Part shown: piece by piece, positions 3,191-45,101 of the stretch
Layout of the letters: every line of letters begins with the position of its first letter
Numbering within the stretch: the stretch's first letter is position 1
Source of the DNA: Holophagales bacterium UBA5704
Lineage (GTDB): Bacteria > Acidobacteriota > Thermoanaerobaculia > Multivoradales > UBA5704
Assembly (NCBI GenBank): GCA_002420005.1
Contig: DIHE01000052.1
Span: forward strand, 855 to 64,854
Direction: 5' to 3'
DNA length: 64,000 nt
Notes under the pieces: generated by a model
Database searches by the model: none
The model's input: only the letters and a program-made list of their open reading frames with translations
What the model was told of the DNA's origin: nothing
Program-made: the position numbers and the translations under genes

Positions 3191-5026
3191 ATGCGAGCTC
3201 TGACCCTCTGGAGCGCCGGGCTCCTTCTGACCGTCCTCACCGGGTGCGCGGGCACACCTGCGCCCCGGGTCAAGATCAGCTACACCGACATCGCGCCGGC
3301 CCCGTCCCCACCCCCTCCCGCGGCCGCCGAGGCACCCTCGCCCGAGCCGGCTCCCGCCGAAGCCTCCCTGGGGGCGCCGATCACCACCAAGCAGGCCCTG
3401 GAGCAGGCCCTGAGCTGGGCTGCCGACGGCCTGCGTGCGTTCGAGCGGGGTGAGGCGGAGGCGGCACACAAGAATCTCTCCGATGCGCGCATCATCCTCA
3501 TCGAGGCCGACCTGCCGGATTTCCTGGAAAACCAGGGCCTGGGCGCGCTGCGGGCGGGCCTGCCGGAGGAGCTGCAGCGTTATGACGCCGAGGCGATTCT
3601 GCGCGACCTCGAGCGGACGGACCTGCCGGACCCGGCGGCGCAGGCCGAGCGCGCGTTCATCGAGCGCGAGGTGCGTCGCATCCTGTGGCAGTTCGGCGAC
3701 ACCACGCCGGACGAGCCCTACGTCCGGGTGCTGATCGACGAGACCCAGCACCACGTCAACTTTTTCCGCGGGCGCTACCGCGAGTTCTTCGAACGGGCCT
3801 TCCTGCGCAAGCACAAATACTGGCCGATCGTGCAGGAGGTCTTCACGGAGAAGAAGATCCCTCCGGACCTGGGCTATATCGCGCTGGTCGAGAGCGGCTT
3901 CAACCCGAGGGCGTCGAGCCGGGCGAACGCGAACGGCGTGTGGCAGTTCATCCCCGAGACCGGCCGCCGCTATGGATTGCAGGGCCCCGACGACTGGAGC
4001 GACGTGCGCAAGTCCACGGTGGCGGCGGCCGACTATCTGCTCGACCTGATCAGCATCTTCGGTTCGCGCTCGTTCCTGCTCGCCACCGCCGCCTACAACG
4101 CGGGCGAAGGACGGATCATGGGCTGCCTGCGCAAGGTCGACGATCCCTTCCAGAAGCGCAGTTTCTGGGAGATCCGGGGCTGCCTGGCCCTGGAGACCCA
4201 GGAGTACGTGCCGCGGGTGATGGCGGCGGCGGTGATCGGTGCCGATCCGCAGCGGTTCGGGTTCGACCTGCCGACCGAGGAGGAGATGCGGCAGCGCTAC
4301 GACGTGGTCGTCGTGCCGCAGGTGACTCCGGTGGCGCGGCTGGCGGAGCTGGCCGGGGTGAGCGTCGCGGACCTGCGGCTGGCCAACACCGAGCTGACCG
4401 CCTCCTCGACACCGGGCCGCAACTTCCCGCTCTACGTGCCGGTGGGAACGAGGGACCAGCTCGCCGCCGCCCTCACCGCGCCGCCGGAGGGCCGGCTCCC
4501 CGAGGTGCCGGCGGCTGCGCCGATCGAGCTGGCGGGGCAGGCGAGGGACGAGCGGCCGGCTCCCCGCACCCATGTCGTCCGCCGCGGCGACACCCTGGGG
4601 GAGATCGCCGCCAAGTACGGCCTCGACGTGAAGACGCTCGCCGCCTGGAACAGCCTGCGCAAGCCCTACACCCTGAGCGTCGGCCAGCGCCTGGAGGTCC
4701 CTTCCGGCGGCGCGGCGCCGCGGCTCGTCTACACGGTGAAGAAAGGCAACGACCTCGCCGCCGTGGCCGACCTCTTCGGCGTCCGCGGCAGCGACATCAA
4801 GAGCTGGAACGACCTGCGCAGCAGCAAGCTCAAGGCGGGCCAGAAGCTCACCATCCATCCCTCCGGCGCCGTGGAGACCCACACCTACAAGGTGCGCCGG
4901 GGAGACAACCTGAGCCAGATCGCCGAGCGCTTCGGCGTCACCATCGCCAGCCTGATGACCGCCAACGGCCTGCGGTCGAGCGCGCTGCGCGCCGGGCAGA
5001 TGCTGGTCGTGTACGTCGGGGGGTAG
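3191..5026 (+). CDS. Lipoprotein lytic murein transglycosylase with SLT domain and three C-terminal LysM repeats (MltD-like)
   Basis: Track ORF 3107..5026. ATG 3191 gives MRALTLWSAGLLLTVLTGC, a signal peptide with lipobox LTGC. The SLT catalytic region is ALVESGFNPRASSRANANGVWQF. Three LysM repeats are present (HVVRRGDTLGEIAAKYG, YTVKKGNDLAAVADLFG, YKVRRGDNLSQIAERFG). Confidence 0.85.
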   Translation: MRALTLWSAGLLLTVLTGCAGTPAPRVKISYTDIAPAPSPPPPAAAEAPSPEPAPAEASLGAPITTKQALEQALSWAADGLRAFERGEAEAAHKNLSDARIILIEADLPDFLENQGLGALRAGLPEELQRYDAEAILRDLERTDLPDPAAQAERAFIEREVRRILWQFGDTTPDEPYVRVLIDETQHHVNFFRGRYREFFERAFLRKHKYWPIVQEVFTEKKIPPDLGYIALVESGFNPRASSRANANGVWQFIPETGRRYGLQGPDDWSDVRKSTVAAADYLLDLISIFGSRSFLLATAAYNAGEGRIMGCLRKVDDPFQKRSFWEIRGCLALETQEYVPRVMAAAVIGADPQRFGFDLPTEEEMRQRYDVVVVPQVTPVARLAELAGVSVADLRLANTELTASSTPGRNFPLYVPVGTRDQLAAALTAPPEGRLPEVPAAAPIELAGQARDERPAPRTHVVRRGDTLGEIAAKYGLDVKTLAAWNSLRKPYTLSVGQRLEVPSGGAAPRLVYTVKKGNDLAAVADLFGVRGSDIKSWNDLRSSKLKAGQKLTIHPSGAVETHTYKVRRGDNLSQIAERFGVTIASLMTANGLRSSALRAGQMLVVYVGG

Positions 5027-5030
5027 CTCG

Positions 5031-5426
5031 ATGCCGTATCAGAAGTACGCCGTGGTCCTCTCCAAGCTGGACCTCCGGGTGAAGGCGTTGTCGGCCAACA
5101 TTGGGGAGTTTCCTCATCTCGCGAAGCCACTGGCACAGTTGGGCGAGATGCTGGAGCTTCTGCGGGAGCGCATGGCCGAGCAGGCGCGCCTGACCGCCCA
5201 GCGCCAGGAGGTCTCGAAGCAGGTCGCAGAGCTGAGCAGTCAGGCGCAGAAGCTGATGACCTTTCTGGATGCCGGCGTCCGGCAGCACTATGGAAACCGG
5301 TCGGAGATGCTCCTTGCCTACGGCCTGCAACCGTTCCGCAGCAAGCCGCGCGTGCGGATGGTCGACGCGGACGGCCATCCGGTGAAGCGAACCGGCGACG
5401 ACGCCACCCCGCAAGAGCCGGAGTAG
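5031..5426 (+). CDS. Hypothetical helical protein (131 aa)
   Basis: The ORF starts 4 nt after the mltD-like stop. It has coding-like composition and a predicted coiled-coil-like sequence. I recognise no motif. Confidence 0.5.
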   Translation: MPYQKYAVVLSKLDLRVKALSANIGEFPHLAKPLAQLGEMLELLRERMAEQARLTAQRQEVSKQVAELSSQAQKLMTFLDAGVRQHYGNRSEMLLAYGLQPFRSKPRVRMVDADGHPVKRTGDDATPQEPE

Positions 5427-5450
5427 CGCGGGGCCGCGGCTCGCGCCTCC

Positions 5451-5905
5451 GTGAGAGGAGTCGGTCCCTCGCAGACTTCAGTCGATGCCTCACCGACGCA
5501 AGGCGGCCTCGTACCGACACCGGTCGGTGTCAATCCGACTCAGGTCGCCTTCTCATCGACGACGGTAGGTGCGAAGCCGACATCGGTAGGTCACATACAG
5601 CCGCAAGTCGGCAAGCCACCGACTTGCGTCGCGTCCTCATCAACTTGCGTCGGTTGGCTGACGACTTCAGTCGGGCAGTTTCAGGCGGAAGTCGGTTTAA
5701 GGCCGACTCTTGTCGGTGCCTCACCGACTCAAGTCGGCGATCGACAGACTGAAGTCGAAGAAGAGCCGACTCCAGTTGTCAAGTCACCGACTTGAGTCGG
5801 TGGTCGTACGACCTACGTCGGTTTTGAACAGACCAGGGTCGGTCTCTTGCAGACTTGCGTCGGATCGGCGGCGGCGGCCGTCGGTACCCGGCCGACCGGA
5901 TGGCC
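5451..5905. repeat. Tandem array of about 22 units of 21 bp, each with a 14-bp dyad (consensus CCGACTnnAGTCGG) and a 7-bp variable linker
   Basis: Unit starts fall at 5451+21k with no indel across the array. Examples: 5514 ccgacaccggtcgg, 5703 ccgactcttgtcgg, 5724 ccgactcaagtcgg, 5787 ccgacttgagtcgg, 5850 cagacttgcgtcgg. The right arm GTCGG is kept in about 16 of 22 units. No single reading frame spans the array. Confidence 0.9.
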
Positions 5906-5951
5906 CATCACGCTCGTGGATCTCGCGTAGACAAGTGAGCCGTGTGAGCTC

Positions 5952-5980
5952 TTGACGAGCCTTGGGGCCAACCCTAGACT
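5952..5980 (+). promoter_or_regulatory. Candidate sigma70-type promoter of the plus-strand operon (TTGACG - 17 bp - TAGACT)
   Basis: TTGACG at 5952-5957, a 17-nt spacer, then TAGACT at 5975-5980, in a locally AT-richer stretch just downstream of the repeat array. Pattern match only. Confidence 0.3.
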
Positions 5981-7739
5981 AAGAATTCTGCCAGGGTTTA
6001 CAGCATGCGGGGCAGTCGGCTCAGGAGTGCTTCTTGTAGGCTCTCAAGGGAGATTGAATTTGCCGGACAGCGATGACCTCAGCCATCACGAAACGCAGAC
6101 CGCGTTGCCGGGCCCCCTTCTCGTAACCGGATTCTGGGACAAGGTGGGGACCTGGGCTTTGCCGGCGTCCTCGCTCTCCCTGGCCTCGGCCTTCGTCCTG
6201 GTGGTGACGATTCTGTTCCTGGTCCGCAACCGGGAAATGCGCTCCCTTTTCCTGCTCTCCTGGAAGAGCGGTCTCGTCATCGCGGTCGTGGCGGCGGCTA
6301 TCGCCTGGTCCATCGTGATCCTGTGCGGCCGGCGTCCTGGACGCCTCTGGCCCCGGGTGTGGGCGCTCATCGTGGCCGGTCTGTGCACCGCCTCGGTGAT
6401 CCTCGTGCCGCTTTTCCCCGAGGCCACCTGGGTCAGTGCCTTGACCGTCGCCGGCGCTGCCGCAGCCGTGACCCTGGGTTCGCGCCTCGTGCGGCTGCCG
6501 CCGGACAGCGGGATGATCCCGAAGATCGCACCTCTGACAGCCCTCCTGGTTCTTGCGGGTGTCCTTCCCGCGGTTGCGTGGCTGGGCGACTCCATCGTGG
6601 CCGGCAAGAGGGAACGGGTCGCCGCCATGATCGAGCAGGTCCGGCGGTGGACCACCGAGGTCGCGGCGGTGGCAGGCCGCGACTGGACCGGCGGCGGGTG
6701 GGAGGACGCCAACCGTGCCGCCGCGTCGCTCGCGCAGATTCAGCCGGCCGCCAAGCTCGACCTCTCTCTCTGGCGCGAGGCCTTCTACCTGGAAAGGGAC
6801 CAAGAGCTCGCCCAGGAGGTGGGAAAGCTTCTGCAGGCGACCGCCCAGGGATTCGACGAGGACCGGGTGCCCCGGGTCTCGCGCCTGCGCGATCCCGCCT
6901 TCTATTTCGACCCGGTGGCGAAGCGCTGGGAAGAGAGCGCGGTCTTTCCCGAGGCGAGCGAGACGGTCGGCCGCTACTTCCAGGAGATGGGGCGCATCTT
7001 TCAGGAGCTGGACCTCCAGGTGGGCCTCGCCGAGAGCACGGCTCTAGCGGAGCTGAAGAAGAGCTATCTGGAGGAGAGCCGGCCGGGCGTGGTGAAACAA
7101 CTGAGCGGGCAGATGCAGGAATGGACGGACCATTGGGCCGTCTTCCGTGTCCCCGGGCACGACACTCTGCTCGGCTTCTCGGAGATGCCCCTCGGCAAGC
7201 TGCTGAAAAGCCCGATTCCGACCCTGGGCATCCCTGCGTCGGATCTCCCGGTTCTTCTGAGCCTCTCGTTTCAGCGTGTCCGCAGTTTCAAGCTCATCCC
7301 CGGCTGCCGGCCCCTGGCGCCCTACACGGAGACGAAGGATGGGTCGTCGCGCCAGTACTCGCGGCTCGATTGTTTCTCCTATGGACCCCGGACGGACACC
7401 TTGGGGGCCTGGCCGCGGATCGAGATGCGGCTGGTCTATGCATCGCAGGCGAACAGAGGTCTCCTGAGCGACCAGAAGCCGTCCGAGATCTACTTCCTTT
7501 TCCCTCTACCGGAAGGCCGGGTGGAGAATGAGTTTCAGAAGCAGGTGATGTCGGATCTCGCGGAGGCGGTTCGCGAGACCACGGAGCGGGAGGTGGCGCC
7601 GATCGACCGGAGCGGCTCGACCGAGAACGGCTTCCGTGTTCGCGGCGAGGGCTTGACGATCACCGTCTACAAGCCCTCTTTCGAGCCGCTGTACGAGAAG
7701 CGCAAGGCCCTGGTGGTCCGGGCGGAGAGGAAAGGATGA
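5952..7739 (+). CDS. Hypothetical polytopic membrane protein (about 6 N-terminal TM helices plus about 370-aa soluble domain); first gene of the plus-strand operon
   Basis: Track ORF 5952..7739. The TTG at 5952 coincides with the putative -35 box, so the true start is probably later, e.g. TTG 6060 preceded by AAGGGAGA. Hydrophobic segments include SLASAFVLVVTILFLV, GLVIAVVAAAIAWSIVIL, WALIVAGLCTASVILVPLF and LTALLVLAGVLPAVAWL. The stop overlaps the next gene's ATG (ATGA at 7736). Confidence 0.6.
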   Translation: MTSLGANPRLRILPGFTACGAVGSGVLLVGSQGRLNLPDSDDLSHHETQTALPGPLLVTGFWDKVGTWALPASSLSLASAFVLVVTILFLVRNREMRSLFLLSWKSGLVIAVVAAAIAWSIVILCGRRPGRLWPRVWALIVAGLCTASVILVPLFPEATWVSALTVAGAAAAVTLGSRLVRLPPDSGMIPKIAPLTALLVLAGVLPAVAWLGDSIVAGKRERVAAMIEQVRRWTTEVAAVAGRDWTGGGWEDANRAAASLAQIQPAAKLDLSLWREAFYLERDQELAQEVGKLLQATAQGFDEDRVPRVSRLRDPAFYFDPVAKRWEESAVFPEASETVGRYFQEMGRIFQELDLQVGLAESTALAELKKSYLEESRPGVVKQLSGQMQEWTDHWAVFRVPGHDTLLGFSEMPLGKLLKSPIPTLGIPASDLPVLLSLSFQRVRSFKLIPGCRPLAPYTETKDGSSRQYSRLDCFSYGPRTDTLGAWPRIEMRLVYASQANRGLLSDQKPSEIYFLFPLPEGRVENEFQKQVMSDLAEAVRETTEREVAPIDRSGSTENGFRVRGEGLTITVYKPSFEPLYEKRKALVVRAERKG

Positions 7740-8989
7740 GCGAGCAGGAGACGGGCAGGTCCGATTATGTAGACGACGAGGACGAGGGCGAGAGCCCGCT
7801 CTTGTCGTCGGTGCCGGAGGAGCCCTCTTCCAAGTGGGGGGATCGCCCGATTCCGCTCCCTCCGTCATCGCTGCCGCCGGTCGAGCCGGAGGAGGAGAGG
7901 GACCAAACAGGTCCGTCTTCCTCTCAGGAGCCTCCCCGAGCCGGGTCTGCCGCTCCCGCTGCCCGGCCGGGGCCTGCGGACGCGCTCGTGGAAGAGACCG
8001 AAGAGGGAGCTCCCTTCAACCTGCCGGGGGTGGAGAAGCTGGGGATCATCGGCGGCAAGGGGGTGGGGAAGAGCTTTCTCTTCCAGGCCATGGTCTTCCG
8101 TGCCTATTCGAAAAGCCAGGCGGGCGCGATGAGCCTCTTTCTCGAGAAGGTCCGGCTCTTTCATGCCCTGCAGAGGTCGGATAAAGCGCGCCCGCTCAGC
8201 CTCGGCGAGTTCGGAAAACGATACATGACCTGGGGGCGCCTGCCGCAGACCCTCCTGTCGAATCAGGCCTGGTACCGCCTCCGTCTGCACTGCCGAACCG
8301 GGCTTTTGCGCGAGAAGGAGTCAACCCTGGATGTCGAGTTTTTCGACGGCTCCGGGGAAGGGTTTTTCGAGGCCGCCAGGAGGCGCGGGATCAGCGAGAT
8401 CTGGCGGGACGGGTATCTGGACGCCAAGGTGATGGTCTTCTGCCTGCCCCTCTGGGTGGCCTTCCCGGGGAGCCGGATGACCACGGCGGATCGGCGGGAG
8501 CGCAACGTGGTTCTCGAGGGATTCGAAAGGGTCGTCCAGAACTACGAAGCCCTGCGGAGTGAGGGGGGGCGCGAGAACCAGCGGGTCAAGAGCATTCTGG
8601 CCCTCACCATGGCGGACGATCCCCGCACTGCCCTCGGCACGTTGTATGAAAAGTGGATTTCCCCCTATCTGGCCTCGCCGCACTCGTATCTGCCCCATCT
8701 GCAGAAAGAATCGGGGGTCGCCCGCTACCTGGCGAATGCGCGCCAGGTGTCGGAAGCCCTGCACCGGGAGCTGGCCGCGAGCCGCGACCCGCGTGTCAGC
8801 TCGATCTCCCAGACGCTGGACTATCGCGGTGGCAGGCCCTGGCTGATCCCTCTCAGCGCCGTCGAAGGAACCCGCCTCGACCGGATCGAGCGCGAGAAGC
8901 AGACCGGCGAGCGCCTCGCTCCGGTACCGGTCCATGCCGAGCTCCCTCTGCTCGTGGCTCTCTGCGAGCGGTACAATGCCCTGATGTGA
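7736..8989 (+). CDS. P-loop GTPase-like protein with acidic/Pro-rich N-terminal tail
   Basis: G1 is GIIGGKGVGKS, G3 is FFDGSGEG (DxxG), a G4-like motif is LTMADD, and a G5-like motif is LSAVEG. The first roughly 100 aa are low-complexity (DDEDEGE, PPVEPEEE). ATGA overlap with the upstream gene. Confidence 0.7.
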   Translation: MSEQETGRSDYVDDEDEGESPLLSSVPEEPSSKWGDRPIPLPPSSLPPVEPEEERDQTGPSSSQEPPRAGSAAPAARPGPADALVEETEEGAPFNLPGVEKLGIIGGKGVGKSFLFQAMVFRAYSKSQAGAMSLFLEKVRLFHALQRSDKARPLSLGEFGKRYMTWGRLPQTLLSNQAWYRLRLHCRTGLLREKESTLDVEFFDGSGEGFFEAARRRGISEIWRDGYLDAKVMVFCLPLWVAFPGSRMTTADRRERNVVLEGFERVVQNYEALRSEGGRENQRVKSILALTMADDPRTALGTLYEKWISPYLASPHSYLPHLQKESGVARYLANARQVSEALHRELAASRDPRVSSISQTLDYRGGRPWLIPLSAVEGTRLDRIEREKQTGERLAPVPVHAELPLLVALCERYNALM

Positions 8990-9008
8990 CGGCCAAGGGA
9001 GATCACTC

Positions 9009-12000
9009 GTGAGCACAGCTCCTGCGTCGCTCTCCGTCTACCGCGGCCAGCAGGCGCTCCGGGGACGGATTGGTGAAGGCGGGGGACGGCTGGTCGCCCA
9101 GGGGGAGCAATACCTCGACGCCGAGCCGCCGCTCGATCGGGACGCCGATCTGCTCGACGCGATTCGCCCCTGGATGAGCCTCGACTCGGATCCCGTGGAC
9201 CATCAGGTGCTCGCAGACCGCCTGGAGGCCTGGTCGTTCTTCACCTGCGGCGACCGGCAGCTGGTCGCGCGCCTGGTCTCGGCCGGCATCTATGATCGCC
9301 GCGCCGCCTACTTCGCGCACGGCCGCCTCTGGCCTCTGCCTGCCGGGCCCGGCATCGACCCGGGCCTGCACGTCGGCCGTTCCGAGGCTTTTGAAGCTCC
9401 TTGGCGCGATGACGGCCCACGCCGGCCTGTTCCCGAACCGGCGCCGGCTTTCCTCGGCGTGGAGCCGATCAAGGCGGAGCCCGAGGCGGCCTCTCTCTTC
9501 CTGGGCCATCTGCTCCAGAGTGCCGTGCGCGGGCGGCCTCTGGCGGTTCTGGCTCCGCTGTCCGACTTCGCCGTCGGGGCACCGTTTCACAAGCTCCTGT
9601 CGTTCGCCCGGGGCTCCCTGCCGGCGGACCTCCGCCAGACGACCCGGGTGCGCATCTACACCCGCACGCCGGAGCTTTTCCTGCGCGACTCCGGGCCTGC
9701 GCTGATCGCGGTGCCCGCGGACATGGAAGAGCGGGTGAAGAGCTTCCGCCGCGATGCTCTGCTGATCGACCGGCAGGGGAGAGCCCTTTCCGGGGAGCCG
9801 CCCGATCCGGCGGCCCTGGAGTACGCCCGCGCCGTGGTCCGGCGCGCCGCCAAGACCCCCAGGAGCCTCACCCGGTTCGGAGAGCGGTTCCGGGACCGGC
9901 ACCCCCGCGCGGCGGGCGAGCTGCCCGGCCCTCGCGACGTGCTCGCCGTCCCCATCATCTACAACTTGGCGGACGCGCTGGCCGGCTCTTCCGAGGACCG
10001 CACCGGCTTCGTGGTCGACTTTCTGCCGCAGATCGGCCCCAAGCTCGGAGCCGTCGTGGACTGGCAGCAGCTCCTCTCCGGCGAGGAGTGGCGGACGTTT
10101 CCCCTGGACCCGGTGCTCGAGCTCCTGCTCCAGGATTCCCAGGGGATGCCGCCCGGGATGCAGGAGATCCAGAAGGCCATCGAGCGGGCGGAGCGGCTCA
10201 AGCACGCGATGGAGCGGGGAGAGGTCGACCGGTTCCGCGTTCAGACGATCCTGCAGTCCGCGCCGCCCTCCCGGCTGGCGGCGGTTGTCCGCGAGATCCT
10301 CCAGGTTCCCGGCCTGTTCGAGAAGGACGGACCCTGGGGCGACGTTCTGGCACGCCTCCTGGAGACGCTCCGCCGCCTTCGGGGCCTGCCGCCGGAGCTG
10401 GCCGCCGCGCTCGTCCAGTCGCTGGTCGACGAAGGCAAGCTCCGCCATTCGTGGCTGGCTTCCCTGGCTCCGCAGTGGATCGAGCACGAAGATCTGCTCA
10501 AGGCGCTCGGAGTGGACGCGCTGCTCGATTTGGCCCGCTTTCTGGAAGCGGAACAAAGCCTGAGGACGGTGTTCGCTCACGTGGACGTCCGGATGGGCGC
10601 CGACCCCCGGTCCACCACCGATGCCCTGATCCGCACCGGCTGGTGGACGGCTTGGCGGAGGATGTCCGATTTGATGATCCAAGAAGGGGAGAAGAAGCTC
10701 CAGGCGGCGGAGGCCTGGCTCAGCTCGCCCCTCTGGACCGCAGGCGGGGCGAGGCGGGAGGCGAAACGGGAGGACTGGACGCGGGTGATGGATGACCTGC
10801 CGGCCAGCCTGTATGAAGCGGGCCGTCCGGCACCCTGGAGCGGCGCCGAGGAGCCGCGCCGCCGCCTGTGGCCGTGGATTCCTCCTTTTGAAGAGGAGCA
10901 GATCCAGGACCTGGCCGAGCGGGTTCCGGATCTCCCGTCTCTCGCCGGGCTGGCGGACACCCTGGAGACGACGAAAGATCCGGGGCTGGACGTCGGTGAG
11001 GCCATCTGGCGCTTCGTCCTGCGCAAGTCGAGGTTCCATCGCCATTTCGCGAGCGAGGATGCGCTGGGCTGGCTGCTGGAGACGCGGCCTGACGGGCTGC
11101 CGCCGCTGAGCCTGGCGGATTCCCTTCGGCTCTGGCAGATGGCGGGTCCTCGCCGGAACCAGGCGGGCCGGGCGCGGCTGGCCTCGGTCTGCCATGGTCT
11201 CGAGAACGACGCGCAGGCGAGGGAAGGCATCCTTGGTGCCGATGATCCATACCTCTGGGACAAGCCCACGTTTGCCCAGGCGGTGGCCTTCTGGATGCAC
11301 CGGCGCGGGTCGGTGGAGAAAATCGGCTTGGATGTCCTCGACAAGATCGAGCAGCAGATCGCCGCCGAGCCCTTGCGGCGCCCCTCGGCCACGCGACAGC
11401 TGGTCGATGAGCTCGTGCGGCGCAATCTCACGAAATGCGCCGCGCTCCTGAGTCCGAACCTCGCCGGAGTTGTCGCTCTGGAGAACCTGGTGGAGTCGGC
11501 GGTCGATGCCCTTGCAGAGGGAGCGCACGATCACCCGTGCTGGAAGAACCTGGCGGACCTGACGGAGCGTGGCGCCACGGACAAGCATCTGCTCTCCTCG
11601 CTCGCGGAGCGGGTTCGGAACACGACGGGCGAGCAGAAGGCCGCTCTCCTGCGGAACGGATGGCGCACGTTCGAAGCCGCCACCCAGGCGCAGCCGTTCT
11701 TGACCCACGTACGTCCCGAGCAGGCCGATCTGCCGGTCTTCGATCTCGCGGCGAGCCTGTCGAAACCGGGCGGGCTGGGGACCGCGGTGCTCGGCGTGAT
11801 CTTCCTGGCCAACGCGAGCCAGAAGGCAAAGCCGGAATGGTGGGGGGGGCTCCTGCGCGAGTTTTTCAAGTGGCGCCGGTATCCTCCCAGGGATTGCGCA
11901 GACGACCGGAGGGACGTGGCGATGGCTCTCGTGGTGCGCCTTCTCGGAGATCTCAAGCCCGAGGAGCGGAAGGCTTTCTGGAAGGCCATGGGACAGAGAA

Positions 12001-12032
12001 ACGATTGGGACCTTTTGGTGGGAGCTCAATGA
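9009..12032 (+). CDS. Large (1007 aa) mostly alpha-helical hypothetical protein, candidate GTPase-associated partner
   Basis: GTG 9009 lies 6 nt after AAGGGAGA. The single long ORF has coding-like composition and no catalytic motif that I recognise. The N-terminal segment (LDSDPVD...AWSFFTCGDRQLVARL...YDRRAAYFAHGRLW) weakly resembles the N-domains of the two minus-strand proteins at 14380-17546. The stop overlaps the next ATG. Confidence 0.65.
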   Translation: MSTAPASLSVYRGQQALRGRIGEGGGRLVAQGEQYLDAEPPLDRDADLLDAIRPWMSLDSDPVDHQVLADRLEAWSFFTCGDRQLVARLVSAGIYDRRAAYFAHGRLWPLPAGPGIDPGLHVGRSEAFEAPWRDDGPRRPVPEPAPAFLGVEPIKAEPEAASLFLGHLLQSAVRGRPLAVLAPLSDFAVGAPFHKLLSFARGSLPADLRQTTRVRIYTRTPELFLRDSGPALIAVPADMEERVKSFRRDALLIDRQGRALSGEPPDPAALEYARAVVRRAAKTPRSLTRFGERFRDRHPRAAGELPGPRDVLAVPIIYNLADALAGSSEDRTGFVVDFLPQIGPKLGAVVDWQQLLSGEEWRTFPLDPVLELLLQDSQGMPPGMQEIQKAIERAERLKHAMERGEVDRFRVQTILQSAPPSRLAAVVREILQVPGLFEKDGPWGDVLARLLETLRRLRGLPPELAAALVQSLVDEGKLRHSWLASLAPQWIEHEDLLKALGVDALLDLARFLEAEQSLRTVFAHVDVRMGADPRSTTDALIRTGWWTAWRRMSDLMIQEGEKKLQAAEAWLSSPLWTAGGARREAKREDWTRVMDDLPASLYEAGRPAPWSGAEEPRRRLWPWIPPFEEEQIQDLAERVPDLPSLAGLADTLETTKDPGLDVGEAIWRFVLRKSRFHRHFASEDALGWLLETRPDGLPPLSLADSLRLWQMAGPRRNQAGRARLASVCHGLENDAQAREGILGADDPYLWDKPTFAQAVAFWMHRRGSVEKIGLDVLDKIEQQIAAEPLRRPSATRQLVDELVRRNLTKCAALLSPNLAGVVALENLVESAVDALAEGAHDHPCWKNLADLTERGATDKHLLSSLAERVRNTTGEQKAALLRNGWRTFEAATQAQPFLTHVRPEQADLPVFDLAASLSKPGGLGTAVLGVIFLANASQKAKPEWWGGLLREFFKWRRYPPRDCADDRRDVAMALVVRLLGDLKPEERKAFWKAMGQRNDWDLLVGAQ

Positions 12033-13267
12033 GCAAGCAGATCACGTTCTTTTGGGACAGGCGGCAGGCGGGCCATGTGTATGATTTCGAGATCGACGAT
12101 GGCGCGCGGCGGCAAAGGTTTTCGGTGTTCTCCCAGAAGCCCCTGGAGGAAAAGCTGGTCAAGAACCGGCCGCTCCCCAAGGAGAACAAGGGAGACCTCC
12201 AGCCCGAGATCGAGAGGATCAAGGCGATTCTGCAGGGGCAGGGAGGCGTGATCTCCCTGGTCCACGATAAGGGCCTGAATCAAGTCTCCCTCCGGACGAT
12301 TCCGGTCGCCACCCAGGCCGGGGCTGCGATCGCTTCTGTCGGCATTCTCCGGCCGGGCCACCCCTCGTTGGCGCTGGAGGCCTTGAACGAGCCCCAGGGA
12401 GCACCCTTTCCCGTGGGCTCGCATGCGTTGATTCCGGTCGACCCGGAGACCGAGACGCAGCTACGTGGCTTAAAGGAAAACCTCGGGCATCTGCCCGGGG
12501 ATCTGGAATCGCTGGCCCTTCACGCCATCCGGGAGCCGAGCCTGGAGTCGCGGGTCGGTCTTCTGGAGGCGCTCAACCGAAAAGGCGGGGATGATTCGCC
12601 GACGGGTCCGAAATGGCTGCGCCGTCTCCTGGAGAAGACCTCCTGGGGCGGCCGTCCCGCCTCGCTCTGGCCGGCGGTCGCGGCCCTTCTGGGACTGGTG
12701 CTGGTGGCCAATACAGTCGTCCTGTACTCGATCCTGAAGACGGACAACGGCTCGATCGTGGTGCCTTTGATGTCTGCGGGAAGAACCCCTCCGGCCGCGG
12801 CGGCCACACCGGGCCAGAAGATCTTCGCGCTCACCGAGGCGGTTCGCGGCAAGGCGGAAGATGCCCGGATGAAGGCTCTGGCGGAGGGTCACTTTGTCAG
12901 TGTGCAGAAGGAAGATGAGGTCGAACGCATCCTGACCCCAGGGGAAGAGGGAGTGCTTCTGGTGCGCGGCCTCATGAAGCTGGAAGCTCTCCGTCTGAAT
13001 CAGGAGGATGCGGCCGGCCTCTTCGACAGTGCCAACAATCCGACCCAGGTCAACAACTTCTATAAGGGGCGCGCTCTGAACGCTCGATCCAGGGACCTGC
13101 TGGCGGCGCTGGCCTGCGTCGCCTTCGGAGCCCCGGGATTGCCGAAGACCTCGACGGCGGACCCTGTCCCGTTCGCCGAGGAAGGGAAGGATTGCACGAG
13201 CTACCCGCTCGACAAGGCGTCGCCGGGGCTCGACGACTTGTTGAAGCTCCTTCAGGACACCCGTTAG
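12029..13267 (+). CDS. Hypothetical single-pass membrane protein (412 aa)
   Basis: ATG 12029 overlaps the stop of the previous gene (ATGA). The track ORF 11435..13267 is an upstream shadow extension inside the previous gene. A central TM helix is LWPAVAALLGLVLVANTVVLYSIL. Confidence 0.65.
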   Translation: MSKQITFFWDRRQAGHVYDFEIDDGARRQRFSVFSQKPLEEKLVKNRPLPKENKGDLQPEIERIKAILQGQGGVISLVHDKGLNQVSLRTIPVATQAGAAIASVGILRPGHPSLALEALNEPQGAPFPVGSHALIPVDPETETQLRGLKENLGHLPGDLESLALHAIREPSLESRVGLLEALNRKGGDDSPTGPKWLRRLLEKTSWGGRPASLWPAVAALLGLVLVANTVVLYSILKTDNGSIVVPLMSAGRTPPAAAATPGQKIFALTEAVRGKAEDARMKALAEGHFVSVQKEDEVERILTPGEEGVLLVRGLMKLEALRLNQEDAAGLFDSANNPTQVNNFYKGRALNARSRDLLAALACVAFGAPGLPKTSTADPVPFAEEGKDCTSYPLDKASPGLDDLLKLLQDTR

Positions 13268-13276
13268 ACCGGCGGC

Positions 13277-14377
13277 ATGGAAACGCTTTCTCTGCGCGTC
13301 GTCGCCCCGCCGGAGGCCGAGATCCGGACAATTCCCCTGCCTCTGGAAGCGGGCGGCTCCCCCTGCTCGGTCTACCTGCGCTGCCTTCCGGGGGCGGCGG
13401 CGATCCATTGTGCCTTTGTGAACGGTGACGGCTCCATCGTGCTGCGCACCGAGGTCCAGGCCACCGGCGGCGAGAAGGTCCGGATCGGCGTGGCCCTGGG
13501 GACGGAGCGCGAGATGCGGGTGTGGAGCCCCGGGCGCAAGGTGCTGACCCTTCCCAAAGAGGCACCGTACGAGCCGCCGCCCACCCTCCGCGTCGCCGGC
13601 TCGGGGACCCGCCTCGACCTCGCCTTCGTCATCGACGGAACCGCCCGCCGCTTCTCGTTCGACGGCAAGCAGTCCGTCTCCGAGCCGTGGCTGGGCAAGC
13701 AGGTCTGGGAGGAGCCGGTGAACCTCCTCGCGGGCTTCGCGGCGGCTCTCGTCGAAGGCTCGCAGGGGAGCCGTTTTTCCGTTCTGGCGTTCGGCGACGA
13801 AGGGATGAAAGGCGTCGAACCGGAGGATCTCGCCGACGGCTACCTTCTGCGGCCGCCTGCGGGGGCTGGGAGGTTCTTTCCCTGGAGCCCGGAGCGGTGC
13901 CGCGAGGCTCTGTCCGCGGTCGAGCCGACGCCGGGGGGCGACTTCGTCGATGCTCTCGCCGAGGCTCTCCATGCCTGCCGGAGCCTGCCGTGGGGCGAAG
14001 GGACGCGCCGGATCGTGTTGGTCTGCGGAGATTCTCCAGGGCACTCCGTGGCGCATCCTCTCCCTCCCGGCGCCGATGCCCGGGTACGCAGGCTGGACGT
14101 CGACGTCGAGGCCGAGCATCTGCACGAGAGGGGGGTCGAGATCGCCACGCTGTACTTCGATCCTCAGGGGAATGCCGGTCTTGGTCAGGCGGTCTTCCGG
14201 AAGGAGCTTCTCGCCGCGGCCCGCGACCAGTACCGGAGGCTGGCCTCCCTCCCGGAGATGGCCTTCGAGCTGTCCCGCTTCCAGTCCGAGGAGGCGGCCC
14301 GGGTGGTCAAGGACGTGCAGGGGCTGCTCGCCCGCCGGGCCGCGCCCGGCGAGCTGATCGGGGTTTCGGAGCCCTGA
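13277..14377 (+). CDS. von Willebrand factor A (vWA) domain protein with about 100-aa N-terminal beta-rich domain
   Basis: vWA strand/MIDAS region LDLAFVIDGTARRF, then SRFSVLAFGDEG and RRIVLVCGDSPGH, in the typical vWA order. The MIDAS position reads DGTAR instead of DxSxS. Confidence 0.65.
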   Translation: METLSLRVVAPPEAEIRTIPLPLEAGGSPCSVYLRCLPGAAAIHCAFVNGDGSIVLRTEVQATGGEKVRIGVALGTEREMRVWSPGRKVLTLPKEAPYEPPPTLRVAGSGTRLDLAFVIDGTARRFSFDGKQSVSEPWLGKQVWEEPVNLLAGFAAALVEGSQGSRFSVLAFGDEGMKGVEPEDLADGYLLRPPAGAGRFFPWSPERCREALSAVEPTPGGDFVDALAEALHACRSLPWGEGTRRIVLVCGDSPGHSVAHPLPPGADARVRRLDVDVEAEHLHERGVEIATLYFDPQGNAGLGQAVFRKELLAAARDQYRRLASLPEMAFELSRFQSEEAARVVKDVQGLLARRAAPGELIGVSEP

Positions 14378-14379
14378 CG

Positions 14380-15870
14380 TCAGCTTTTCCCGGCGGCCGT
14401 CAGCTCTTCCTGGATCAGGGCCTTCACCCAGGGCTTCCGTTTCACCGGCGGCCATTCGCGCAGCGCCTGTTCGAGCCGCCGTGTCCAGGGGTTTGCCGGG
14501 CACTTCAGGCTGTTCCGGAGGGCGTTCCGGAGATCGGTCTGTCCCATTTCTGCCAGCAGGCCGGGGCTCACAGAGAGGGCGAAGAGCAGCTCCGGGACCC
14601 GGCGGCTCTCGAAGGCTCCGACGGAATCGGGATTCGTACCGGGACGCAGGACCAGCGCAGCGCTGCGCAGCACGTCCAACTTGACCTTCCACTGTGCGTC
14701 ATCCACGGCATCGGGCTTGAGCTCTCGGAGCGTCCTGATCCAGGAGGGGAAGAGGGTCTCGTGAATTGGAACGAGCTCCGAAATGGGATGGCGTGACCAC
14801 CGGCCCAGGTCAGGCCAGCGAGCTTCGACGGCACAGGCGAAGGTATGGAGTGCTTCGAGCCAGGCCGGCGCCCCCTTGGGCGGGGCCGGCAGGGCGATCC
14901 TGGCGTCCGGCCGCACGGCCTCCAGGGGTGTGAGGGGGAGGGTATGCACGGCGACCGGCGGCTCCGCAGGGGGGCGGGCCGAAGACCCTGCCGCTTGCAC
15001 AGGCACGCTGGGGACGAGCACGGCCCTCTCCGGCTGGAGCTCCAGGAGAGCCTTGGCGAGAGGCCAGCCCTGGTCGTCGGCCGGCTCCTGCCGGTGAGCC
15101 TGCTCCACGAGATGGGGAGGAACGGCGATCACGTCCCAGCGCCTCCCGAGGTCCGCGAGAGAGGCGCGTCCCGAGGGAATCCAGCCGGCGAGCGAGAGGG
15201 TCTCGGCGATCGTGCGCGGGAGGGGGAGAAGAAGGACGGCGAGCGCGAGGGGAGAAAGGGGGGCTTCGAGACCCGTCAGACAGGCGGGCTTGCGTCCTGC
15301 CAGGATCTGGGTGTAGAGCCCGGCCAGGCTCTCGCGCTCCACGGATGCGTGCAGCTCCTCCACCCCTCGCGCCACCAGAGACTCCAGGTTTCCAGGAATC
15401 GGTGTGGGCTCCTCGGCGGCGAGCTGGAGGAAGAACCAGGGATCCTGCCAGGCTCGCTCCTCCCTATAGAGCGTCCAGACCTTCGCATCGAACGAGGCCA
15501 CCTGCTCGAGGAGGAGGAGGGCTCCCAGGGCGGCGGGCGTGCCGCGGCCCGGGGTCCAGGTGAGCAGCTGCTTTTCAAGGAAGTTCGACCGGCCCACGGC
15601 ATCCGAGGCCGGGCTCCGGTAGATCGCGGCTGCGCAGTACCGATCTCCCTGGCGCAGCCAGAGTGGTGCCGGGACCGGCTGGTCCTCGGAGCCGAGGGTG
15701 AGTTGTTCTGCCAGTCCTTCGGTATCGAAGCCGCTGCTCCGGGCGATCCAGCGGTAGTCGGTGGAGGCGCCCGGCGCCTTGCCCCAGATGCCCCGTTCGC
15801 AGTGGAGCCTCCCGGAGGGCAGAGCCTTGAGCTGGGCGAAGGCCGGCCATTGCAGGATCGAGGTGCTCAT
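14380..15870 (-). CDS. Hypothetical protein; its N-terminal roughly 290 aa are paralogous to the upstream GTPase-fusion protein, and it has no GTPase domain
   Basis: The true start is ATG 15870 (MSTSILQWPAF...), overlapping the upstream stop (ATGA). The track ORF 14380..16047 carries a shadow extension. Shared blocks with the neighbour are ERGIWGKAPGASTDYRWIA, LGSED, GRSNFLEKQLLTW and LLLPLPR. Confidence 0.7.
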   Translation of the reverse strand: MSTSILQWPAFAQLKALPSGRLHCERGIWGKAPGASTDYRWIARSSGFDTEGLAEQLTLGSEDQPVPAPLWLRQGDRYCAAAIYRSPASDAVGRSNFLEKQLLTWTPGRGTPAALGALLLLEQVASFDAKVWTLYREERAWQDPWFFLQLAAEEPTPIPGNLESLVARGVEELHASVERESLAGLYTQILAGRKPACLTGLEAPLSPLALAVLLLPLPRTIAETLSLAGWIPSGRASLADLGRRWDVIAVPPHLVEQAHRQEPADDQGWPLAKALLELQPERAVLVPSVPVQAAGSSARPPAEPPVAVHTLPLTPLEAVRPDARIALPAPPKGAPAWLEALHTFACAVEARWPDLGRWSRHPISELVPIHETLFPSWIRTLRELKPDAVDDAQWKVKLDVLRSAALVLRPGTNPDSVGAFESRRVPELLFALSVSPGLLAEMGQTDLRNALRNSLKCPANPWTRRLEQALREWPPVKRKPWVKALIQEELTAAGKS

Positions 15871-17546
15871 GCCGCCTTCGTGACCTCGTCGAGCAGCCAG
15901 GCGAAAGGCTCCATCACGTTGACCGGGCTCCCTCCGGGGCCGATGCGGGGGCTCAGCTCGTTGTCGTAGAAAACGACCGACTCGACCAGCCCGTAACGCA
16001 CGCGGACTCCGGCGGCGGAGACCGGGAAGAACCTGAAGAGGGTGCAATAGTGGCCGAGCAGGTCGGCCAGTCCCATCTTATCGTGCCGGCGGACGAAGTC
16101 GTCCGGATTCTCGGTGGCGCGCTGCAGGTCGGCTTCTGTCCGGATCAGGAGGTCCGCCTTGGAGAGGCAGACGGCGATCGGCCGCGGGTCCTTTCCGGTT
16201 CGCTCATGAAAGAGGCTTTCGAGCGTGCTCAGCACCTGGCTGTACAGCGTGTCGCCCTGGGCGGTGGGGTCGAACAGCAGGATCAAGCCGTTCGCCTCGG
16301 TCAGATGCCGGCGATGCTGGTTCATGGCCTCCGTCAAGTCGGTGGAGGCGCTCCCGAAGCTGGTGGAGGCGCTGCCGGCCCGGTCCTCCAGCCGCAGAGA
16401 CACCCCGCGGCTGGTCGCGCGGTGCTGGAAGTGGTATTCGACCGGCTCGGCCTCGAGACCGGTGGCCGACGGGAACTTGCGCTCCTTGCGGATCAGGTCT
16501 CGCATGTTCCGGAAGAAGTCTCTGGAGGCAGGCGCAGGATAGGCGTCATAGGTGTTCGACCGGTTTCCCAGATTGGCGAGGTAGAGCTGGGCCAGGAGGG
16601 CGGTCTTGCCGGCTGCGGAGGCCCCCCAGAGGGCGAGCTGGACCGGGCGCCGTTCCGGCGCCGGTACGCTGCGGAGCGGCCGGCCCGAGGTCGGGGCCGG
16701 ATTGCGGCTGAAGATGGCGCGCGCCAGACGGCGGCCCCGTTCCTGATGCTCCGGCGTGGGCTCCGTCGCCGGAGCGACGGGTGCCTCCCCTCCCAAGGTT
16801 GCATTCCAGCAGCTCTGGAGGCTCTCGACGCCGGCTCGCCGCGAGGGCAGCCAGCCGGCCACGGAAAGCCTGTCGGCGACGTCCCGCGGCAGGGGGAGGA
16901 GGAGGGCGGCCAGAGCTTCGGGGCCCAAGGGAGCGGCGAGGCCGTCCAGAGGCACGGCCCGGTGGCCGGCGATGAGGCGTGCATAGAACGCGGCGAGAGA
17001 CTCCTCGGACACGGTCGTCTCCAGCTCGGAGAAACCAGTCTCCACCGTCTCTTCGAGCTCACCGAGAGAGACGGCGAACGGTGCGTGGTCCTGGGGGGAG
17101 AGGAGGAGAGGATCTTCCCCGTTGAAGGAGCCGCGCCGGTCCCACCAGATCCCTGCGTTCGTCTGGGCGACGCGGGGGAGGAGCGCCATCGCGCCGAGGG
17201 TGGCCGGGATGGCCGCGGCGCGCCGCCAGGTGAAAATCTGTTTCTCCAGAAATCCCGAGCGTCCCGCGGCATCGGCCGCCGGGCTTGCGTAGGTCGCCAT
17301 GGCGACGTACAGCTCGCCGAGGCTCCGCCAGTGTGTGGCGGTTCGGGGGGCGTCCTCGCTTCCCAGCACGAGTTGCTGCTCGATCCTCTCACGGCGGGGG
17401 AAGGCGGAGCTGGCGGCGATCCACCGGAAATCCGAGCTGGAGCCGGGGACCTTGCCCCAGACGCCGCGCTCATGGTCGATGCGGGGAGGCAGAGATCCGC
17501 CTTCGAGGGCGGGCCAGGCGGCAAGAGAGCGGCCGAGCGAGGTCAT
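15867..17546 (-). CDS. Fusion protein: conserved N-terminal domain (paralog of 14380-15870) plus C-terminal P-loop GTPase
   Basis: The true start is ATG 17546 (MTSLGRSL...), overlapping the kinase stop (ATGA). GTPase motifs: G1 LWGASAAGKT, G3 LEDRAG, G4-like CLSKAD, G5-like VSAAG. Confidence 0.75.
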   Translation of the reverse strand: MTSLGRSLAAWPALEGGSLPPRIDHERGVWGKVPGSSSDFRWIAASSAFPRRERIEQQLVLGSEDAPRTATHWRSLGELYVAMATYASPAADAAGRSGFLEKQIFTWRRAAAIPATLGAMALLPRVAQTNAGIWWDRRGSFNGEDPLLLSPQDHAPFAVSLGELEETVETGFSELETTVSEESLAAFYARLIAGHRAVPLDGLAAPLGPEALAALLLPLPRDVADRLSVAGWLPSRRAGVESLQSCWNATLGGEAPVAPATEPTPEHQERGRRLARAIFSRNPAPTSGRPLRSVPAPERRPVQLALWGASAAGKTALLAQLYLANLGNRSNTYDAYPAPASRDFFRNMRDLIRKERKFPSATGLEAEPVEYHFQHRATSRGVSLRLEDRAGSASTSFGSASTDLTEAMNQHRRHLTEANGLILLFDPTAQGDTLYSQVLSTLESLFHERTGKDPRPIAVCLSKADLLIRTEADLQRATENPDDFVRRHDKMGLADLLGHYCTLFRFFPVSAAGVRVRYGLVESVVFYDNELSPRIGPGGSPVNVMEPFAWLLDEVTKAA

Positions 17547-27959: not shown

Positions 27960-28077
27960 CATGCCGTCCCTTCGGGACTCGCCCCCTCGCGAGGCGGACC
28001 CGTTTCGGCGATGGCGGCCTGGCGCGATACGGCACCGGGGCCGTGGGGGCCAGCCCCCGAAGGGGCCGGTATTTTAG

Positions 28078-44313: not shown

Positions 44314-45101
44314 GGGGGGCCGGGGACGCCCGACGGCTACGTCCGAGCGGGGGCTATCGCAACCTGCGGTCGTTCCAGGTCTCCACGCTCATCTATGACG
44401 CGACGGTCTCGTTCTGCGATCGCTTCCTGGACAAGCGGTCCCGCACCGTGGACCAGATGGTGCAGGCGGCGCGCAGCGGGCGGCAGAACATCGCCGAAGG
44501 CAGCCGGGCCTCGGCCACCTCGTCGCAGACCGAGCTGCGCCTCGTCAACGTCGCGCGGGCGAGCCTCGACGAGCTTCTGCTGGACTACGAGGACTTCCTG
44601 CGCCAGCGCAGCAAGCGCCAATGGGCGAAGGATGACCGCGAAGCCCGGGAGGTGCGGGCGGTCGGGAGAGCCGGCTCCGCCGCCGCCGCCCCGTACGCTC
44701 CCTGGCTGAGCCACGCCGACCCGGGCGTGGTGGCGAACGCAGTGATCTGCCTGATCCACCAGGCCAACTACTTGCTCGACCAGCAGATCGCCGCGCTGGA
44801 GCGCGATTTCATCCACCAGGGCGGCTACAGCGAGACCCTTGCGGCAGCCCGGCTCGCCGAACGCGACCGCCAGCGGCACCGGGGCCTTGTGGATCGGACG
44901 GATCCGACGGATCGGACTGATCCGTCCGATGACTTGGCCCCGACTGCCGCGGAGGCCCCGCCGGCTTGCCCGGCCTGTGGCAAGGCCATGGCCTTGCGGA
45001 TCGCCCGACAGGGTGCCCGTGCCGGGTCCCGGTTCTGGGGTTGCACGGGCTACCCGCACTGCAAGGGAACACGGCCGATCGAAGGCGTGCCGCCATGCTG
45101 A
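44310..45101 (+). CDS. Four-helix-bundle protein (23S rRNA intervening-sequence protein family) with C-terminal topoisomerase-type C4 zinc finger
   Basis: The frame is open from GTG 44310, which overlaps the NRPS stop as GTGA; there is no in-frame ATG before the conserved core. The core is YRNLRSFQVSTLIYDATVSFCDRFLDKRSRTVDQMVQAARSGRQNIAEGS...ELRLVNVARASLDELLLDYEDFL. The C-terminus is CPACGKAMALRIARQGARAGSRFWGCTGYPHCKGT. The start codon is uncertain. Confidence 0.75.
   Translation: MRGAGDARRLRPSGGYRNLRSFQVSTLIYDATVSFCDRFLDKRSRTVDQMVQAARSGRQNIAEGSRASATSSQTELRLVNVARASLDELLLDYEDFLRQRSKRQWAKDDREAREVRAVGRAGSAAAAPYAPWLSHADPGVVANAVICLIHQANYLLDQQIAALERDFIHQGGYSETLAAARLAERDRQRHRGLVDRTDPTDRTDPSDDLAPTAAEAPPACPACGKAMALRIARQGARAGSRFWGCTGYPHCKGTRPIEGVPPC
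44891..44930. repeat. 9-bp GATC microsatellite, locus 4 (linker of the four-helix-bundle / zinc-finger protein)
   Basis: ggatcggac ggatccgac ggatcggac tgatccgtc cgatgac. Translated DRTDPTDRTDPSDD. Confidence 0.9.

Follow-up and report, generated by a model that had tools for sequence, protein, structure and literature searches.

A phased array of 21-bp dyad units linked to a 131-aa protein gene in Thermoanaerobaculia, tentatively read as binding sites for a dimeric protein

In the genome of Holophagales bacterium UBA5704, the intergenic region that follows a gene for a 131-amino-acid (131-aa) protein carries an array of short palindromic units in strict 21-bp register, and the question that this locus raises is what such an array is and to which of its neighbours it belongs. 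The region lies in a stretch of 64,000 nucleotides (contig DIHE01000052.1, positions 855 to 64,854), the whole of which is called here the window, and it is 633 bp long, since the first gene of the downstream five-gene operon starts at TTG 6060 (559 aa). A preliminary description of the window had placed the array directly upstream of a candidate system, namely this operon, and had considered iterons, a centromere-like array, cooperative operators for a dimeric DNA-binding protein or a transcript of mini-hairpins. We find that the array is non-coding and that its core sequence and spacing are held by selection, and sequence comparison ties it to the 131-aa gene rather than to the operon. The reading that we put first, tentatively and at rather less than even probability, is an array of phased dyad sites for a dimeric, sequence-specific DNA-binding protein, with a layout like that of sopB-sopC and with the 131-aa coiled-coil protein as its unproven candidate binder. 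The features needed for the argument are as follows.

5451..5912, no strand assigned: phased dyad array of 22 units of 21 bp, delimited by laying out the sequence in steps of 21 and by the arrays of the relatives L145, L146 and L148
5031..5426, + strand: gene of the conserved 131-aa protein, without known domain; the sole gene co-occurring with the array in relatives, and candidate binder
5427..5450, + strand: 24-nt junction between the TAG stop of that gene and the first unit, without terminator
5724..5737, no strand assigned: perfect extended dyad CCGACTCAAGTCGG, from the sequence layout and the dyad count
5787..5800, no strand assigned: perfect extended dyad CCGACTTGAGTCGG, whose TGA is the sole in-array stop of the frame that translates the units as PTxVGxx heptads (the PTxVG frame)

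Laid out in steps of 21, the sequence gave 22 consecutive units from 5451 with zero indels, the well-formed part spanning 5460-5896 and units 0, 20 and 21 being marginal. This bears out the conserved dyads, variable linkers and unbroken phase that had been described at first. The unit consensus, CCGACTTGAGTCGGTGCCTCA, contains two half-sites in inverted orientation, CCGAC at unit positions 1-5 and GTCGG at positions 10-14, and the array holds two nested dyads, CCGAC-N4-GTCGG and GTCGG-N7-CCGAC. The core cCGAC-N4-GTCGg was held in 18-21 of the 22 units (GAC at positions 3-5 in 21, 19 and 21 units; GTCG at positions 10-13 in 21, 20, 18 and 21), and linker positions 7-8 and 16-20 were near random. 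Between 5440 and 5920 all 13 exact GTCGG were in phase 9, all 10 exact CCGAC in phase 0, and 17 of 18 GTCG in phase. Exact GTCGG occurs in 13 units, and not in the 16 or so for which the preliminary description had given the right arm as retained. Perfect 5+5 dyads number four in all (5514, 5703, 5724 and 5787); the description had located two of them, 5724 and 5787, and it is these two that extend to the 6+6 form CCGACTnnAGTCGG. Across the 64-kb window, exact CCGAC-N4-GTCGG was found four times and exact GTCGG-N7-CCGAC five times, every copy within the array, against expectations of 0.36 and 0.34; when one mismatch was tolerated, 12 of 14 matches to the first dyad and 15 of 15 to the second (27 of 29 together) fell within it. 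Outside the array the dyad had 0 and 2 copies, compared with about 10 expected from shuffles; we considered avoidance and rejected it as not significant, as control dyads of the same composition ranged from 0 to 27.

The GC (guanine plus cytosine) content of the array is 0.613 versus 0.712 for the window, a deficit that the preliminary description had judged from a single line, and the promoter-like pair that it had pointed out, TTGACG-17-TAGACT, was recovered by a promoter scan at 5952-5980, about 40 bp after the array ends. Tandem Repeats Finder did not report the array even at score 30, and this silence explains why it would go unannotated. As to the comparison of unit number between strains that had been proposed, the array was identical in five assemblies of the source Acidobacteria population, and it is between lineages that the number varies, from 3 to 33-35 units. 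The array is also bracketed by a perfect inverted repeat of 11 nt (5373-5383, GGCCATCCGGT; 5895-5905, ACCGGATGGCC), one arm of which lies within the 131-aa gene; at this GC chance would yield about 0.5 such pairs (an estimate), no counterpart was seen in L145, and we set the repeat aside.

The 131-aa family comprises about 60 homologues of 92-206 aa, mostly 125-138 aa, and its named members are from Thermoanaerobaculia. In all four lineages fetched, the 131-aa gene is followed, directly after its stop codon, by half-sites:

Window: 22 units of 21 bp after the stop; downstream, the operon
L145: protein 72% identical to that of the window; 33-35 perfectly phased 21-bp units; downstream, a convergent polyketide synthase (PKS) gene and no operon
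L146/147: protein 71% identical to that of the window; three degenerate units of 21 bp, among them GTCGGGTTCAACCCGAC; downstream, a convergent gene
L148/149/150: protein 61% identical to that of the window; a unit of 42 bp in 13 copies, made of GTCGGGTTCAACCCGAC plus a second hairpin

In each of them the array starts 24-36 nt after the stop, on the coding strand and with no terminator between. The window's first unit, GTGAGAGGAGTCGG, matches GCGAGAGGAGTCGG of L145, where CCGAC-N4-GTCGG is retained in at least 30 of the 33-35 units and where 24 GTCGG and 23 of 24 CCGAC are in phase over the whole length; in L148 the register of 42 bp (2 x 21) is kept over the 13 copies. Two further arrays (P0206 and P0207), with a hairpin of loop GTTCAAC, were visible only as translated open reading frames (ORFs) with VGFNPT repeats. 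The other neighbours change. The gene upstream of the 131-aa gene in the window encodes a LysM/SLT transglycosylase, L146 and L148 have different neighbours, and no operon of the downstream type was found within the 5 kb fetched 3' of the L145 array. The operon itself is conserved in relatives (at least 10 loci), and arrays are absent upstream of 8 of 10 operon loci, those without the 131-aa gene lacking the motif; the flanks of L127-L131 and L145-L150 contained no dyads. Gene-linked half-sites in four lineages and arrayless operon homologues together indicate that the array belongs with the 131-aa gene. Judged from these loci, it is the companion of that gene, its position before the operon in the window being incidental, and the initial framing of the array as the upstream part of a candidate system has to be given up.

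The comparison between the window and L145 shows what is retained in the array. While the 131-aa proteins are 72% identical and their genes 81% identical in DNA, the non-coding junction is about 54% identical (counted by eye), and the linkers agree at a mean of 3.1 of 11 positions, which is the chance level, with no collinear chain (17 versus 14 +/- 1.6). In both arrays the cores are kept at about 90%, and there is no indel in 55 units. Unrelated linkers, kept cores and zero indels together mean that core sequence and exact spacing are both held by selection. We scanned 185k public species genomes with three phased GAC-N4-GTCG units, a permissive pattern, and obtained at least 119 loci; nearly all of those listed were homogeneous 21-bp tandem repeats, from every phylum, some of them coding for coiled coils (KTDV heptads), and among the matches listed none was syntenic and none encoded the 131-aa protein. 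In these 119 other 21-bp GAC-N4-GTC arrays, again among the matches listed, linkers were 71-93% conserved. By this measure, the window array is unlike ordinary young minisatellites. A phmmer search with the array translation against 1.84 billion representatives returned mostly satellites of YPPTAVG type (eukaryotic-looking by impression) and unrelated heptad proteins, P0158 being the sole match that resembled a similar degenerate array.

The operator-type array for a dimeric DNA-binding protein, already proposed in the preliminary description, is still the best of the readings considered. The array would be a cis-acting element of double-stranded DNA with about 44 pentamer half-sites, CCGAC or GTCGG in alternating orientation, 9 and 12 bp apart, and with a unit of 21 bp (two helical turns) that would put all sites on one face of the helix. 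A dimeric sequence-specific protein could then occupy the dyads side by side and build a long cooperative nucleoprotein filament or a wrapped complex. Half-sites at roughly one per helical turn on one face would suit a continuous filament of dimers. The element would be genetically tied to the gene just upstream, in the order gene and then its own site array. A constraint of helical phase explains the fixed N4 and the fixed N7 at once, whereas a hairpin model constrains only one of them. Moreover, adjacent arms in the array pair no better than shuffled arms, and their mismatches show no G.U excess on the + (transcribed) strand; with no gain in pairing and no G.U bias, conservation is to the consensus sequence and not to complementarity. 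As for its role, the complex might serve as a landmark or anchor on the chromosome, as a silencer or roadblock separating the upstream genes from the transcription unit that follows, or as a titration array.

The 131-aa protein had been named early as a candidate for binding, and it has proved to be the array's one consistently linked gene. It is predicted to be all-helical (helix 2-22 and a long helix 28-87 in an AlphaFold2 model, predicted local distance difference test score 81), with no strand predicted at the N terminus, and the model has the shape of a helical hairpin, in which the central helix is long, with a tail that is basic, disordered and conserved, QPFRSKPRxR..GPDGKP. It had no match in Pfam, NCBIfam, PHROG or PDB sequences, nor by fold with the AlphaFold2 model. 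We infer that the array acts as DNA, that it is bound by a protein and that the binder may be the 131-aa product, the last of these being an unproven candidacy drawn from genetic linkage only.

Several results weigh against this interpretation. No ribbon-helix-helix (RHH), helix-turn-helix (HTH), ParB-type HTH or winged-helix fold was recognised in the 131-aa protein. The linkage of gene and array was sampled in only four lineages of a family of about 60 members. The family and the array had no match in 72,556 plasmids; viral contigs gave no 131-aa homologue, and one unrelated two-hairpin site there fitted the DNA pattern. No partition nucleoside triphosphatase (NTPase) was linked to the 131-aa protein. 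In addition, the array is probably transcribed, as it is always 3' of the gene, on the same strand and without a terminator. Finally, the comparison of lineages gives hints of conserved pairing: L146 has a hairpin TCCGG-CTCAA-CCGGA with a swapped pair; L148 has a second hairpin, TTCCC-N9-GGGAA, in place of a GTCGG/CCGAC pair; and L146 shares an identical loop, GTTCAAC, with L148.

The last of these observations bring in the main alternative, which we regard as rather unlikely but as a serious contender: the array would work as RNA, either as the 3' untranslated region of the 131-aa mRNA or as a processed RNA, folded into about 20 small hairpins. Each would consist of a GUCGG/CCGAC stem of 5 bp closed by a loop of 7 nt, or of the reverse stem closed by one of 4 nt. 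The hairpins might serve as a scaffold or sponge that binds a protein, possibly the 131-aa product, or might protect the 3' end of the message. The position of the array shortly past the stop in four lineages agrees with this, and a scan of 4900-6200 for terminator-like sites included no intrinsic terminator. So does the minimal version found in L146/L147, one good hairpin GGTCGGGTTCAACCCGAC followed by the hairpin just mentioned, in which the G13:C2' pair is swapped to C:G, the whole being like a 3' stem-loop. The second hairpin of the L148 unit is unrelated and stands at the homologous position, and the GTTCAAC loop shared by L146 and L148 recurs in P0206 and P0207. The region also folds far better than shuffles (-257.6 kcal/mol, z = -5.5), but such a value is expected for any palindrome array and is uninformative. 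On the other hand, neither compensatory covariation nor a G.U bias was seen within the arrays of 22 and 33 units; the predicted fold consists mainly of long-range pairing between units and not of local hairpins; 5-bp stems are weak; and both spacers are invariant in length over 55 units, which independent hairpins do not require. Rfam 15 gave no match to the array at gathering score, just chance-level microRNA matches at E up to 10. ARAGORN reported a tRNA-Leu(taa) at 5662-5738 (+), which we treated as a false positive, a cloverleaf drawn from three consecutive array hairpins without Rfam tRNA match. Mimicry of tRNA was rejected on inspection as well, the linkers being without the U33 and R37 rule of anticodon loops and the GTTCAAC loop being out of T-loop register. 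Between the two, a DNA element is favoured over an RNA element.

A functionless minisatellite is a less probable explanation and, in our opinion, quite an unlikely one. It would suppose that an ancestral 3' hairpin of the 131-aa gene was expanded by slippage and that a bias of mutation or repair, with stems protected and loops exposed, has kept the cores. Unit number does differ widely between lineages (3, 22, 26 and 33-35), L148 and part of L145 have very recent duplications with identical units, and the conserved positions are exactly the stem positions in either hairpin register. Against this, the arms do not merely fit each other: they fit one sequence that is common to lineages with proteins at 61-72% identity. 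Besides, indels are missing in spite of saturated linkers, and the 21-bp arrays listed from elsewhere, with their conserved linkers, look different.

It is improbable, too, that the array is an upstream control element or insulator of the five-gene operon, a silencer or roadblock against read-through from upstream. Its end lies close to the operon promoter, no intrinsic terminator was found between the upstream genes and the operon, and the operon of L129 (54% identity) has a 21-bp-phased dyad array of its own, with the different core TCGC-N-GCGA, about 160 bp before its promoter. However, the promoter TTGAC-N17/18-TAnAnT is invariant in ten operon loci, and eight of them keep it with no array. 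The closest relatives of the operon, L141 (74%) and L128 (75%), pass straight from the LysM/SLT gene or its remnant to the promoter, and in L145 the 131-aa gene and the same array are followed by the convergent PKS gene, with no operon in the 5 kb fetched. The 417-aa protein of the operon, which has a P-loop, is not linked to the array in relatives.

The operon extends over 5952-14377 in the window and encodes proteins without Pfam family, in the order 559-aa, 417-aa, 1007-aa, about 415-aa and 366-aa; the first is a membrane protein, and the P-loop of the second is GGKGVGKS. Its neighbours vary (IS110 in L128, YoeB/Phd in L127), a context typical of a mobile island. A metagenome scan with a profile of the 559-aa protein gave nine loci, mostly already in hand. 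In L141 (934-3854) the LysM/SLT gene upstream of the operon is duplicated, and in L128 (1857-2330) it is reduced to a fragment beside an IS110 transposase, which suggests rearrangements at the operon junction. DO-GTPase2 is a family of predicted conflict systems. A 607-aa protein encoded at 15867-17690 (-), facing the operon, matches this Pfam family (Double-GTPase 2, E = 9e-10).

The last alternative is a peptide of PTxVGxx heptad repeats, encoded by the array now or until recently, whether by read-through from the 131-aa gene or from a separate ORF (GTG 5451 to TGA 5795); it is largely refuted and highly improbable. The arguments for it concern the frame. The PTxVG frame continues that of the upstream gene, and it agrees with the reading frame of the 131-aa gene in each of the four lineages, by way of two independent offsets. 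In the window its single stop inside the array compares with 6.3 predicted by column shuffles (P = 0.003), a shortfall for which we have no explanation; gene callers have also placed ORFs over the L148/L149 arrays. Nevertheless, codon log-odds against the window's own genes were negative in all six frames of the array (-0.38 to -0.75; -0.66 in the PTxVG frame), compared with +0.29 to +0.60 in real genes. In the PTxVG frame GC was flat over the three codon positions (0.63/0.61/0.60, where genes here have about 0.7/0.45/0.9), and rare codons prevailed, with ACT for 11 of the 18 Thr (genome usage 3%) and GGT for 11 of the 16 Gly (genome usage 9%). In the 'Pro' codon the wobble base G3 was retained in 21 of 22 units and the first two bases in 16 and 15; a wobble base kept better than the first two is only sensible if the palindrome itself is the selected object. 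The L145 array has three stops in the same frame, as expected by chance, the 131-aa homologues terminate at the same place in the alignment, none of the five assemblies has a gene call over the array, and there was no Pfam match. The array is non-coding. The selection on a heptad-repeat protein that the preliminary description had envisaged as an outcome was not encountered, the frame bearing no coding signature.

Several known systems can be set beside the array. In plasmid F the partition genes and their centromere come in the order sopA-sopB-sopC. Like sopC and other type Ia centromeres, the array lies directly after the gene of its presumed binder. Shared as well are tandem units with one short inverted repeat each, outside which the sequence does not need to be conserved, and a number of units that varies and exceeds what is needed (PMC5016525). 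The sites of sopC and OB are short inverted repeats within longer iterons, with flanks that are not conserved (PMC5016525). The array differs in that sopC has 12 nearly identical 43-bp units, against 22-35 units of 21 bp with randomised linkers here, in that its locus is chromosomal, in uncultured Acidobacteria, and has neither a ParA/SopA NTPase nor a ParB-type HTH protein, and in that the plasmid database held nothing similar to the array. The repeats of pSK41 are about 20 bp long, close to the 21 bp found here. At type II parC centromeres, small dimers occupy tandem repeats in a superhelix, and the parC/ParR (R1, pSK41) and omega heptad (pSM19035) arrays share with ours the contiguous short repeats; on them small dimers lie side by side in a superhelical complex that can overlap or abut promoters and repress them (PMC5016525). 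Those arrays have 4-10 mostly direct repeats, are located upstream of their operon and are bound by RHH proteins, whereas the 131-aa protein is predicted to be all-helical and no ParM or ParA partner occurs here. The suggestion of a centromere-like array matches the architecture, with its tandem dyad repeats; but the fold of the protein, the lack of an NTPase partner and a context that is not that of a plasmid all speak against counting it among the partition systems.

With the iterons of plasmids such as R6K, F and P1 the array shares a period of about 21-22 bp, two helical turns. Iterons, however, are direct repeats, 3-14 in number, and have a rep gene, DnaA boxes and an AT-rich region beside them; in the array the units are dyads, the GC is 61%, no rep gene is present and no switch of GC skew was found at the array, and we have abandoned the iteron or replication-origin reading. 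Repetitive extragenic palindromic (REP) sequences and bacterial interspersed mosaic elements (BIME) resemble it as short palindromes of alternating orientation at gene 3' ends, probably transcribed, and the L148 unit, whose two hairpins have their loops in opposite orientations, is reminiscent of a BIME pair. REPs differ in being dispersed in tens to hundreds of copies and in being accompanied by RAYT transposases, while here the 21-bp register is strict and there were no copies elsewhere in the window or flanks (zero exact dyads outside the array in 64 kb; 2 and 0 with one mismatch). The outcome of a generic repeat scattered through intergenic regions, which had been foreseen at the outset, did not occur in the window or in the flanks of the related loci. 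Clustered regularly interspaced short palindromic repeats (CRISPR) have repeats of 23-55 bp and unique spacers of similar length, and the array has 5+5 conserved and 4 and 7 variable bp, the variable parts being much shorter than CRISPR spacers could be. In the preliminary description the pattern had not been recognised as CRISPR, REP/BIME or any familiar repeat class, and we found no description of the element in the literature. By its architecture it would be a phased tandem array of binding sites beside its gene, known as a kind and undescribed as a family.

Two other phased arrays were seen. In L129 (JGI 3300028380), the array that precedes the homologue of the 559-aa protein extends over 7114-7720; its core, (A/G)TCGCGGCG, is read forward in 7387-7710 and as the reverse complement at 7114, 7198, 7282 and 7303, so that it occurs in both orientations, its linkers are free and AT-richer, and a gene caller had put a 232-aa ORF over it. 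L143, a close syntenic relative of L129, has no array. In a Thermoanaerobaculia metagenome-assembled genome (SMAG_U5499, L025:5782-6060), about 13 diverged 21-bp units with GCGACC-NN-GGTCGC occupy a 470-bp intergenic region between same-strand GSDH/FG-GAP and amidohydrolase genes, with no 131-aa homologue nearby. Both may belong to a wider class of phased dyad arrays; for L129, an affinity for the upstream region of the operon may be the alternative.

Elsewhere in the window, an Acido-Lenti-1 RNA (RF01687, 47.3 bits, above the gathering score) lies at 27934-27979 (+), at the end of a 957-aa ORF and about 230 bp before a gene for a PKS and non-ribosomal peptide synthetase (NRPS); just before it, 27843-27931 is a G-rich tandem repeat of 39 bp / 21 bp. 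The giant ORFs at 28207-44313 and 44966-54580 (+), of 5368 and 3204 aa, are hybrid PKS/NRPS (KS-AT, condensation, AMP-binding and PP-binding) and hold several 9-bp repeats (GGATCGGAC / GATCCGTCC).

For the interpretation of this locus, our results mean that the array is not to be counted with the candidate system downstream; that system has a conserved promoter of its own. They also show how an element with a conserved 5+5-bp core, free linkers and a strict period is missed by standard tools, with Tandem Repeats Finder silent, gene callers skipping it or placing false ORFs over it and ARAGORN drawing a false tRNA from it. The arrays of L129 and L025, with the 21-bp architecture and a different core, hint at a wider, unrecognised class of repeats in the phylum. 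It is conceivable, although we consider it unlikely, that the 131-aa protein and the array form an undescribed two-part nucleoprotein module of Thermoanaerobaculia, in which the protein would polymerise on 20-35 dyads, of DNA or of a transcript, as a large scaffold that expands and contracts by whole units, and would stand for a new class of binders other than RHH and HTH proteins. If the array is the binding platform of the 131-aa protein, the two would represent a new family of DNA- or RNA-binding proteins and a new chromosomal nucleoprotein landmark in a little-studied, uncultured class of Acidobacteria.

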